Below, piece after piece: positions 32,209-32,718 of a stretch of DNA of 64,000 nucleotides. The DNA lies in the IMG/VR virus record IMGVR_UViG_3300025016_000004. The stretch is one strand, 5' to 3'. Within the stretch, counting starts at the first letter, position 1; each line of letters begins with the position of its first letter. Below the pieces are notes generated by a model. That model was not told where the DNA came from. It worked only from the letters and a program-made list of their open reading frames with translations, and did no database searches. The position numbers and the translations under genes were made by a program. This stretch comes from a virus. Taxonomy: Duplodnaviria; Caudoviricetes.

Positions 32209-32551
32209 AGTCCCTAGAGTGATGATTAGAACTAAATATAAATGTGAGAATGAATTATCATACATTCCAACTGAGTTAGCTTTAATGGATGCTTTTGATA
32301 AAAATGATATTGTCGTTCAAGTAACTTATAAGGCGAAAACTAAATATAATGTTGAATTATTATATACTGAAGTATATCGTATCAGTGAAAATTTAGAAAT
32401 TGATGAATTATATAAAAAAAATATAAGACTGATAATCAAGTAGTTAAAAAATAATTTAAAAATAATTGCAAAAAAACTTGTTTTATATTAAAACATTTAC
32501 TATATTTGCACTATATATTAATAACAAGGGTAAATCCCAAAATAAGAAATA

Positions 32552-32650
32552 ATGAGAAATTATACAACATATACGAAACAGTATCAACCGAAGGGCGGGA
32601 AGTCCCAAGGTCAACTGAGTATACGTTGTAGTGACATAACAGAATTCTAA
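32552..32650 (+). promoter_or_regulatory. Leader peptide C (MRNYTTYTKQYQPKGGKSQGQLSIRCSDITEF) of tRNA-operon attenuator
   Basis: Y/T/K/Q/P/G block; TCAACTGAGT (32611-32620) is complementary to the terminator 5' arm; promoter at 32501. Confidence 0.88.
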
Positions 32651-32679
32651 TGTAGAATATAGTTATATAAACAATATAT

Positions 32680-32718
32680 AAAAACCCAGTTGATAAAACA
32701 ATTTCAACTGGGTTTTTT
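32680..32718 (+). terminator. Attenuator terminator C
   Basis: AAAAACCCAGTTGA-loop-TCAACTGGGTTTTTT. Confidence 0.9.

Follow-up and report, generated by a model that had tools for sequence, protein, structure and literature searches.

A 64,000-nucleotide stretch of the virus record IMGVR_UViG_3300025016_000004 (IMG/VR; Duplodnaviria, Caudoviricetes), which we call the window, carries a compact regulatory element, unit C, between a 74-codon open reading frame (ORF) that ends at 32443 and a tRNA-Pro gene that begins at 32777. Unit C is very probably a transcription attenuator of the ribosome-mediated, leader-peptide kind, placed in control of a set of phage tRNA genes whose products would be made on demand. 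A sequence-only reading had marked positions 32478-32718 as an attenuator sensing Tyr, Thr, Lys, Gln, Pro and Gly, with an upstream ORF at 32552-32650 and three helices, termed 1:2, 2:3 and 3:4. Our analysis bears out the span and the ORF, finds all three helices as described to within 1-2 nucleotides (nt), and lends strong support to the sensing function through the recurrence of the arrangement (three units in the window, 30 distinct units in relatives), the match between leader composition and downstream tRNAs, and covariation.

Unit C shows every structural hallmark of an attenuator for which we looked: an ORF near a promoter, a run of regulatory codons, a terminator, a 2:3 helix, and a 1:2 helix that overlaps the codons. 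Its anatomy, the correspondence between its codons and its tRNAs, its conservation and covariation, and its predicted folds can all be read directly from the sequences compared here. What lies behind the terminator is unusual for such an element, in that the classical targets of attenuation (genes for amino-acid biosynthesis, transport or synthetases) are absent and tRNA genes stand in their place.

Promoter, leader and terminator of unit C

Unit C is made up of the following parts.

32430-32524, + strand: conserved promoter block, with an A-rich upstream part, a TTG, a -7 box, the predicted start and a conserved initial transcribed word
32552-32650, + strand: leader ORF of 32 codons, from ATG at 32552 to TAA at 32648-32650; peptide MRNYTTYTKQYQPKGGKSQGQLSIRCSDITEF
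32561-32614, + strand: sensing codons 4-21, comprising Tyr, Thr, Lys, Gln, Pro and Gly codons and one Ser codon
32563-32574, + strand: region 1, the 5' strand of the 1:2 hairpin (TACAAC-A-TATAC), inside the sensing codons
32611-32630, + strand: region 2, of which 2a (32611-32620) pairs with the terminator 5' arm and 2b (32619-32630) with region 1
32680-32718, + strand: intrinsic terminator (regions 3 and 4), with 5' arm 32680-32693, loop 32694-32703, 3' arm 32704-32717 and T run 32713-32718
32719-32776, + strand: spacer between terminator and tRNA-Pro, with a conserved word TTCTTTGAAATATTGTATTTTT at 32745-32776

The promoter combines a TTG at 32478-32480 with the -7 box TATATTTG at 32501-32508, at a spacing of 20 nt. 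This pair matches the Bacteroidota-type -33/-7 consensus TTTG/TANNTTTG (PMC6847099), and since the G of the -7 box sits at -5 in that consensus, the transcript of unit C is predicted to start at ~32513. A 55-nt promoter block recurs at ~16.55, 19.63 and 32.47 kilobases (kb), nearly identical in unit C and in two sister units, A and B, and a fourth copy is found at 30850-30890 (~30.85 kb).

The leader ATG lies ~39 nt after the predicted transcript start. Scored with a start-context matrix trained on the long ORFs of the phage, its surroundings fall at the 99.4th percentile among all + strand ATGs; they are A-rich, with an A at -3 and without a Shine-Dalgarno sequence, which fits the mode of initiation described for Bacteroidota (PMC6847099). 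From the promoter and initiation signals alone, we infer that the host of the phage belongs to the Bacteroidota.

Residues 4-21 of the leader read YTTYTKQYQPKGGKSQGQ, and 17 of these 18 codons specify Tyr, Thr, Lys, Gln, Pro or Gly. Several are rare in the phage, as measured by their share of the synonymous set: ACG (9%), CAG (9%), CCG (5%), AAG (19%), GGC (7%), GGG (13%) and TCC (3%). Such codons may slow decoding, or may merely serve the G+C-rich apical hairpin into which this part of the leader is predicted to fold. Beyond the ORF, the terminator forms a 14-base-pair (bp) stem, including an A/U extension, with a 10-nt loop and a run of six T (-18.5 kcal/mol, z -5.7), and ends 59 nt ahead of tRNA-Pro. 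The fold of the full leader has a z of -5.6, and 0 of 200 shuffled sequences fold equally well.

Leader codons and tRNA clusters in sister units and relatives

Three paralogous units, at ~16.6, 19.7 and 32.5 kb, occur in the window, unit C among them, and in each a promoter is followed by a short ORF of 25-36 codons, a clear terminator and a cluster of tRNA genes.

16545-16816, + strand: sister unit A; leader with likely start at 16673, rich in Leu, Val and Cys; followed by Cys, Val, Leu, Val, Leu and Leu tRNAs
19620-19872, + strand: sister unit B; leader 19709-19804, rich in Phe, Glu, Asp and Ala; followed by Asp, Asp, Phe, Glu, Phe and Glu tRNAs, with an Ala tRNA at 22558
Leader 32552-32650, + strand: unit C; rich in Tyr, Thr, Lys, Gln, Pro and Gly; followed by Pro, Lys, Thr, Tyr, Gln and Thr tRNAs, a sigma gene and a Gly tRNA

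Comparison of each leader with each cluster shows that the leaders name the amino acids of their own downstream tRNAs. In the best 14-residue window of leader C, all 14 residues have a tRNA gene downstream, and the corresponding figures for leaders A and B are 11/14 each, as against 1-4/14 when the leaders are scored against the other clusters. Among the 197 short ORFs with an ATG start across all six reading frames of the window, each of the three leaders scores highest against its own cluster.

Relatives of these units were collected with an exact 23-nt word covering the -7 box and the first transcribed bases, which retrieved five viral and 24 metagenome loci; two further words, taken from leaders A and C, added loci L156 and L158. 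(A loose promoter pattern was also tried as bait and dropped, having matched 71 mostly unrelated phage contigs with tRNAs behind the match in only two.) Automatic extraction gathered 30 distinct units of four types from giant phages (340-360 kb) of groundwater, marine and other metagenomes. Among the sources are two complete genomes with terminal repeats, G003 (360 kb) and G002 (340 kb, 26% G+C), as well as a 197-kb fragment, G001, and its sister contig L156. The fourth type, D, has leaders such as MQTISIIHI.NSMNWRRNS, followed by His, Trp, Met, Ser, Asn, Arg and Ile tRNAs, and the four cluster sets of G003 (HIMNRSVW, CLV, ADEF and GKLPQTY) together comprise all 20 amino acids. Assigning every leader to its own cluster outscores all permutations of the labels in the window (39 versus 20 for the next best), in G003 (55 versus 39) and in G002 (24 versus 11).

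The correspondence extends to the positions at which the leaders differ from one another. Counting the cells of variable alignment columns, residues fall within the tRNA set of their own unit in 53 of 60 cases for type C (background 0.31), 58 of 64 for type D (0.30), 53 of 77 for type B (0.23) and 16 of 30 for type A (0.15). Within a type the order of residues is shuffled while the set stays constant: type D leaders carry ISNSM, INSIM, IGNSM, MSSII or IISSI, and the type C leader of G002 reads FTYQQKQQTPKGYRPYGK, as compared with YTTYTKQYQPKGGKSQGQ in the window. Apparent selection of this kind, on composition and not on order, is predicted for a codon sensor and not for a folded peptide.

Several signals bear on whether the leader frame is read by ribosomes. 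No type C relative, and none of the 30 units, has a disrupted ORF; variable sites fall more often at third codon positions (55) than at the other two (40 and 34); and the stop codons comprise 27 TAA, three TGA and no TAG. Together with the start context, these features suggest that the leader frame is translated. Relatives also carry suppressor-type tRNA(CUA) genes (G001, 182404-182479 and 183895-183968; L156, 3447-3520), which hints at recoding of TAG.

An alternative takes the ORF for an ordinary small gene of the phage, equipped with a promoter and a terminator and unrelated to the tRNAs, which would be transcribed from elsewhere or by leaky read-through. A conserved ORF with a good start context and a strong terminator next to it would suit such a gene, the type A leader taken by itself resembles a hydrophobic signal-like peptide, and the 59-nt spacer of unit C, with its conserved word, could conceal a promoter. 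This word, TTCTTTGAAATATTGTATTTTT, is also kept in G003 and L156 and may serve as a signal for processing or as a second, weak promoter; a full TANNTTTG box is absent from the + strand of the spacer (32719-32776). An ordinary gene leaves unexplained, however, why four unrelated peptides each mirror their own downstream tRNA set, why substitutions keep composition while changing order, and why a segment of the ORF co-varies with an arm of the terminator (see below). In units A and B, moreover, the first tRNA lies at most ~10 nt from the T run, which leaves no room for a promoter between the two; the tRNAs are therefore reachable solely through the terminator, and the terminator must be conditional. 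We consider the ordinary-gene explanation highly improbable.

Alternative RNA structures and the proposed switch

The leader of unit C can adopt two folds that compete for region 2. In the first, region 1 pairs with region 2b (GTATA-C-GTTGTA) to give a 1:2 helix of 6 + 5 bp flanking an A.C mismatch and lengthened by inner pairs; this helix is present in both the minimum-free-energy and the centroid folds, and the hairpin has a predicted energy of -20.1 kcal/mol (z -2.6). The consensus fold of the five type C leaders keeps the hairpin, with 18 pairs, four of which are changed on both sides, and it is less clear in type D. In the second fold, region 2a (TCAACTGAGT), which nearly copies the terminator 3' arm and can thus pair with the 5' arm, is complementary to ACCCAGTTGA (32684-32693) through 7 bp, an A.C mismatch and 2 bp. 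Folded alone, the segment 32608-32699 yields this antiterminator at -17.8 kcal/mol (z -3.2).

The pairing between ORF and terminator recurs throughout the family. In every unit, 6-10 consecutive bases of the ORF are complementary to the terminator 5' arm, and the site occupies a fixed codon position within each type: codons 19-21 in A, 23 in B, 20-22 in all five C units and 21-23 in most D units. The two partners change together. Type B pairs AAGTTGAGT with the arm ACTCAACTT in G002, GATGAGT with ACTCATC in L105 and L106, and GGATGAGA with TCTCATCC elsewhere; the type D terminators fall into two families, with the pairs GTCAGG/CCTGAC and GGTCAAG/CTTGACC. Among the type C units, that of G002 pairs AACTGGGT with ACCCAGTT, and in that of G003 a joint change, from C-G/G to T-A/A, affects the arm, the base opposite it in the terminator, and region 2, such that an A-T pair replaces a G-C pair. 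Arms and sites of the 2:3 helix were detected sequence by sequence; the columns of a MAFFT alignment mis-registered the helix in type B, in which loop lengths differ.

To follow the competition, all 30 units were folded in three states: without a ribosome, with codons 6-14 masked and the terminator 3' arm not yet made, and with everything present. The ribosome-free fold contains the terminator in 30/30 units; in the second state, 6-11 nt of the 5' arm pair with the ORF, again in 30/30.

A terminator/antiterminator switch could equally be operated by a factor, with the ORF as an incidental passenger or spacer: a phage or host antitermination protein, or an uncharged tRNA bound in the manner of a T-box. 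Alternative RNA structures would suit any antitermination mechanism, and the phage encodes sigma factors and many proteins of unknown function. Neither a protein nor a tRNA ligand, however, explains the composition of the leader or the signals in its reading frame, and a T-box-like element, having a single specifier codon, would be unable to report six to eight different tRNAs. An Rfam search of 30600-35600 and 16400-22800 at E <= 1 returned tRNAs plus two chance-level matches, with no leader family, T-box or other cis-regulatory family. Both the T-box riboswitch, whose model was unmatched, and the curated leader families (His_leader, Trp_leader, Thr_leader, Leu_leader and others), for which there was no covariance-model match, were accordingly rejected for unit C. 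We regard operation by a factor as very unlikely.

The attenuator that we favour would work as follows. A strong Bacteroidota-type promoter would initiate a transcript at ~32513, and a ribosome would load onto the A-rich leader, which has no Shine-Dalgarno sequence, and decode 18 codons that nearly all specify Tyr, Thr, Lys, Gln, Pro or Gly. Where the corresponding charged tRNAs are ample, the ribosome would run on to the TAA at 32648, region 1 would re-capture region 2, the 3:4 helix would form, and RNA polymerase would halt 59 nt short of tRNA-Pro. Where decoding is slow anywhere from codon 4 to about codon 16, the ribosome would instead sit on region 1, and region 2, left exposed, would pair with the 5' arm of the terminator while the 3' arm has yet to be transcribed; polymerase would then enter the Pro, Lys, Thr, Tyr, Gln and Thr tRNA genes, and possibly the sigma gene and tRNA-Gly beyond them. 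The new tRNAs would quicken decoding and shut the switch, a negative feedback on tRNA supply, and the tRNA genes of the window would be divided among three such units. This scheme presupposes translation of the ORF, a link between ribosome and polymerase in the host, read-through driven by stalling, and a physiological purpose for the response, all of which we infer.

Several observations weigh against this scheme. When everything is present, the terminator is thermodynamically favoured; a terminator that wins at equilibrium implies that the switch is kinetic, and the model hangs on timing. The 2:3 duplex of unit C contains an A.C mismatch and 7-8 contiguous pairs, and taken alone is weakly significant (shuffle p 0.03). 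To our knowledge, transcription-translation coupling has not been studied in Bacteroidota. With respect to the codons, Ser18 (TCC) has no clear cognate tRNA in cluster C, and the type C leader of G002 retains codons for Gln, Lys, Thr and Gly even though the tRNA genes downstream are limited to Tyr and Pro, a surplus that is most simply read as the remnant of a larger cluster. Within cluster C itself, two weak tRNA-like pieces (32933-33016 and 34003-34082) are ambiguous in low-threshold ARAGORN runs and were left out of the tRNA counts; the second, a 'Glu' tRNA, scores under the Rfam threshold.

The position of the stop codon also counts against a simple version of the model. In types A and B the stop lies 10-18 nt beyond region 2, close enough for a terminating ribosome to mask it in the manner of trpL. 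In unit C the distance is 28-29 nt, and a terminating ribosome would therefore leave region 2 unmasked, so that termination would require region 1 to re-pair with region 2. The same geometry speaks for a further alternative, in which translation of the leader senses general translational capacity or the phase of infection, any ribosome opening the 1:2 helix irrespective of specific codons; a ribosome anywhere on region 1 would free region 2. Such a general sensor, however, would have no need of four disjoint amino-acid sets, each matching its own cluster and kept under substitution, and we judge it the most improbable of the alternatives to a codon-specific attenuator.

Downstream genes, genomic setting and meaning

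Downstream of the terminator, the region controlled by unit C would contain the following features.

32777-34265, + strand: proximal tRNA block, Pro(UGG), Lys(UUU), Thr(UGU), Tyr(GUA), Gln(UUG) and Thr(GGU) (ARAGORN, Rfam)
34359-34366, + strand: promoter-like -7 box TATCTTTG, 28 nt ahead of the sigma ATG
34387-35262, + strand: sigma-70 family gene, 291 amino acids (aa), with regions 1.2, 2, 3 and 4 (Pfam, PHROGs, NCBIfam)
35366-35440, + strand: tRNA-Gly(UCC), the farthest downstream of the tRNAs to which the leader codons correspond

No credible promoter box is found on the + strand between 32720 and 34265, and the six proximal tRNAs thus depend on the promoter and terminator of unit C. How far the operon reaches is less clear. 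The sequence-only reading had extended it over 2.7 kb, through the sigma gene to tRNA-Gly, such that translational stress may co-induce sigma, and the sequence speaks both for and against this proposal: the + strand has no terminator-like site between 32720 and 35900, and the Gly codons of the leader fit a distal tRNA-Gly, but the sigma gene has a TATCTTTG box of its own and its counterparts lie outside cluster C in the relatives. The TATCTTTG boxes look like a second class of promoter, distinct from the TATATTTGCAC class of the tRNA units, for they also stand 28-38 nt ahead of the ATGs of at least three other protein genes, at 2033, 35944 and 54662 (ATGs at 2071, 35977 and 54695).

The sigma gene itself has the look of an insertion peculiar to this lineage. 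Cluster C of G003 and of L156 holds the Gly tRNAs and no sigma gene, and the sigma homologues of G003, G002 and G001 (38-47% identity) are far from the tRNA clusters, which indicates that Gly codons are an ancestral trait of this leader family and that the sigma gene is probably an insertion. A search of viral contigs with the sigma protein as query found no relative.

The window around these genes has a G+C content of ~30% and phage-like content, with genes nearly all on one strand, and its proteins include a DNA ligase, a polymerase, an RNA ligase, HNH endonucleases, TnpB-type transposases and the sigma-70 family protein. DNA nearly identical to the window is present in many groundwater and aquifer metagenomes, and a megablast search of 31500-36500 against cultured phages gave no match. 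Only one metatranscriptome, from an aquifer, contains a small share (13%) of the search words, which is evidence neither way on expression.

Other features of the window were noted along the way. A stretch of ~1 kb at 30850-31975, headed by the fourth promoter copy of the tRNA class (TATATTTGCAC at 30878), is free of ORFs (longest stop-free run 54 aa; G+C 39%) and has a weak tRNA-like element on its 3' side (31885-31974). This stretch is syntenic in G003, at 65-75% identity and directly upstream of cluster C. Rfam gave nothing for it at E <= 1, and we regard it as a candidate large non-coding RNA. Two similar short ORFs, 29606-29704 and 32102-32203, share the motif KQKQVEAL..SMKLEA and each end in a G+C-rich hairpin-like sequence, the first being preceded by a TATATTTG box at 29579. 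An HNH endonuclease ORF (20838-21362) lies within tRNA cluster B, and tRNA-half-like pieces at ~20779 and ~21460-21495 flank this ORF and a tRNA-Phe (20779-21495); the segment may represent a tRNA gene interrupted by a mobile cassette. Two genes of the TnpB/IS605 OrfB type lie on the minority strand (22806-23924 and 52597-53793, both -). An RNA ligase and a metallophosphoesterase (a weak match to an RNA-ligase family) are encoded at 5080-6039 and 42440-43378, a combination that, alongside the tRNA clusters, suggests a tRNA repair kit.

Multivalent leader-peptide attenuators are familiar from enterobacteria, in which thrL carries Thr and Ile codons and ilvL, the leader of ilvGMEDA, carries Ile, Leu and Val codons. 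Unit C resembles these leaders in having a short, putatively translated ORF with codons for several amino acids, in its 1:2, 2:3 and 3:4 helices, and in a kinetic logic by which a stall on region 1 would give read-through. It differs from them in that it controls tRNA genes rather than biosynthetic enzymes, in that one leader names six or seven amino acids, and in its setting, a phage with Bacteroidota-type signals and no Shine-Dalgarno sequence, outside the Rfam families. Its output, tRNA, would also act directly on the signal, the speed of decoding.

The trpL leader of Escherichia coli shares the four-region logic, in which the terminator is the most stable structure and the position of the ribosome when region 3 emerges decides the outcome; there, too, the terminator wins at equilibrium and the switch is kinetic. 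In trpL, in contrast to unit C with its stop 28-29 nt further on, the stop lies near region 2, which the terminating ribosome masks; trpL senses one amino acid and has another target. Closer in purpose is the pheST attenuator of E. coli (pheM leader), where a leader peptide controls a component of translation that feeds back on the supply of charged tRNA. That system is cellular, governs an aminoacyl-tRNA synthetase and senses one amino acid, whereas unit C is viral and governs tRNA genes. T-box riboswitches likewise use a terminator/antiterminator switch to report the charging of tRNA and to control translation-related genes, but bind one uncharged tRNA directly, without translation, whereas the signal of unit C would be a run of codons for several amino acids within an ORF.

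A full-text literature search on attenuation or leader peptides before tRNA genes or phage tRNAs brought up no relevant description, its single 'tRNA operon' match concerning supercoiling of the proM operon. The mechanism is known, and its tRNA-gene target and phage setting are new. Phage tRNA genes are usually viewed as constitutive additions that adjust codon usage, or as decoys against host tRNA nucleases.

It is conceivable, if on balance doubtful, that the leader set as a whole forms a phage-encoded, demand-driven circuit of tRNA supply, with four leaders that span all 20 amino acids in G003, and that it serves as an inducible counter-defence. Each tRNA block would come on only when its own codons are decoded slowly, as would happen if the AT-rich codon demand of the phage exceeded what the host pool can supply, or if those tRNAs were cleaved by host anticodon nucleases or other defences that deplete tRNA. 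On this view, polymerase passing the terminator of unit C would in this lineage also raise the sigma factor, and such co-induction would tie a transcription programme to translational stress.

The narrower attenuator model has consequences of its own. Unit C would provide a compact natural sensor of tRNA availability and a potential reporter, its 30 natural variants would offer material for studying how multi-amino-acid attenuators are tuned, and it gives a concrete route to the question of transcription-translation coupling in Bacteroidota, which do without Shine-Dalgarno sequences. If the model is true, classical attenuation has been turned onto tRNA genes, such that the tRNAs made from the operon directly lift its inducing signal, and the virus would gauge the speed of decoding for each set of codons and replenish only those tRNAs that are in short supply.

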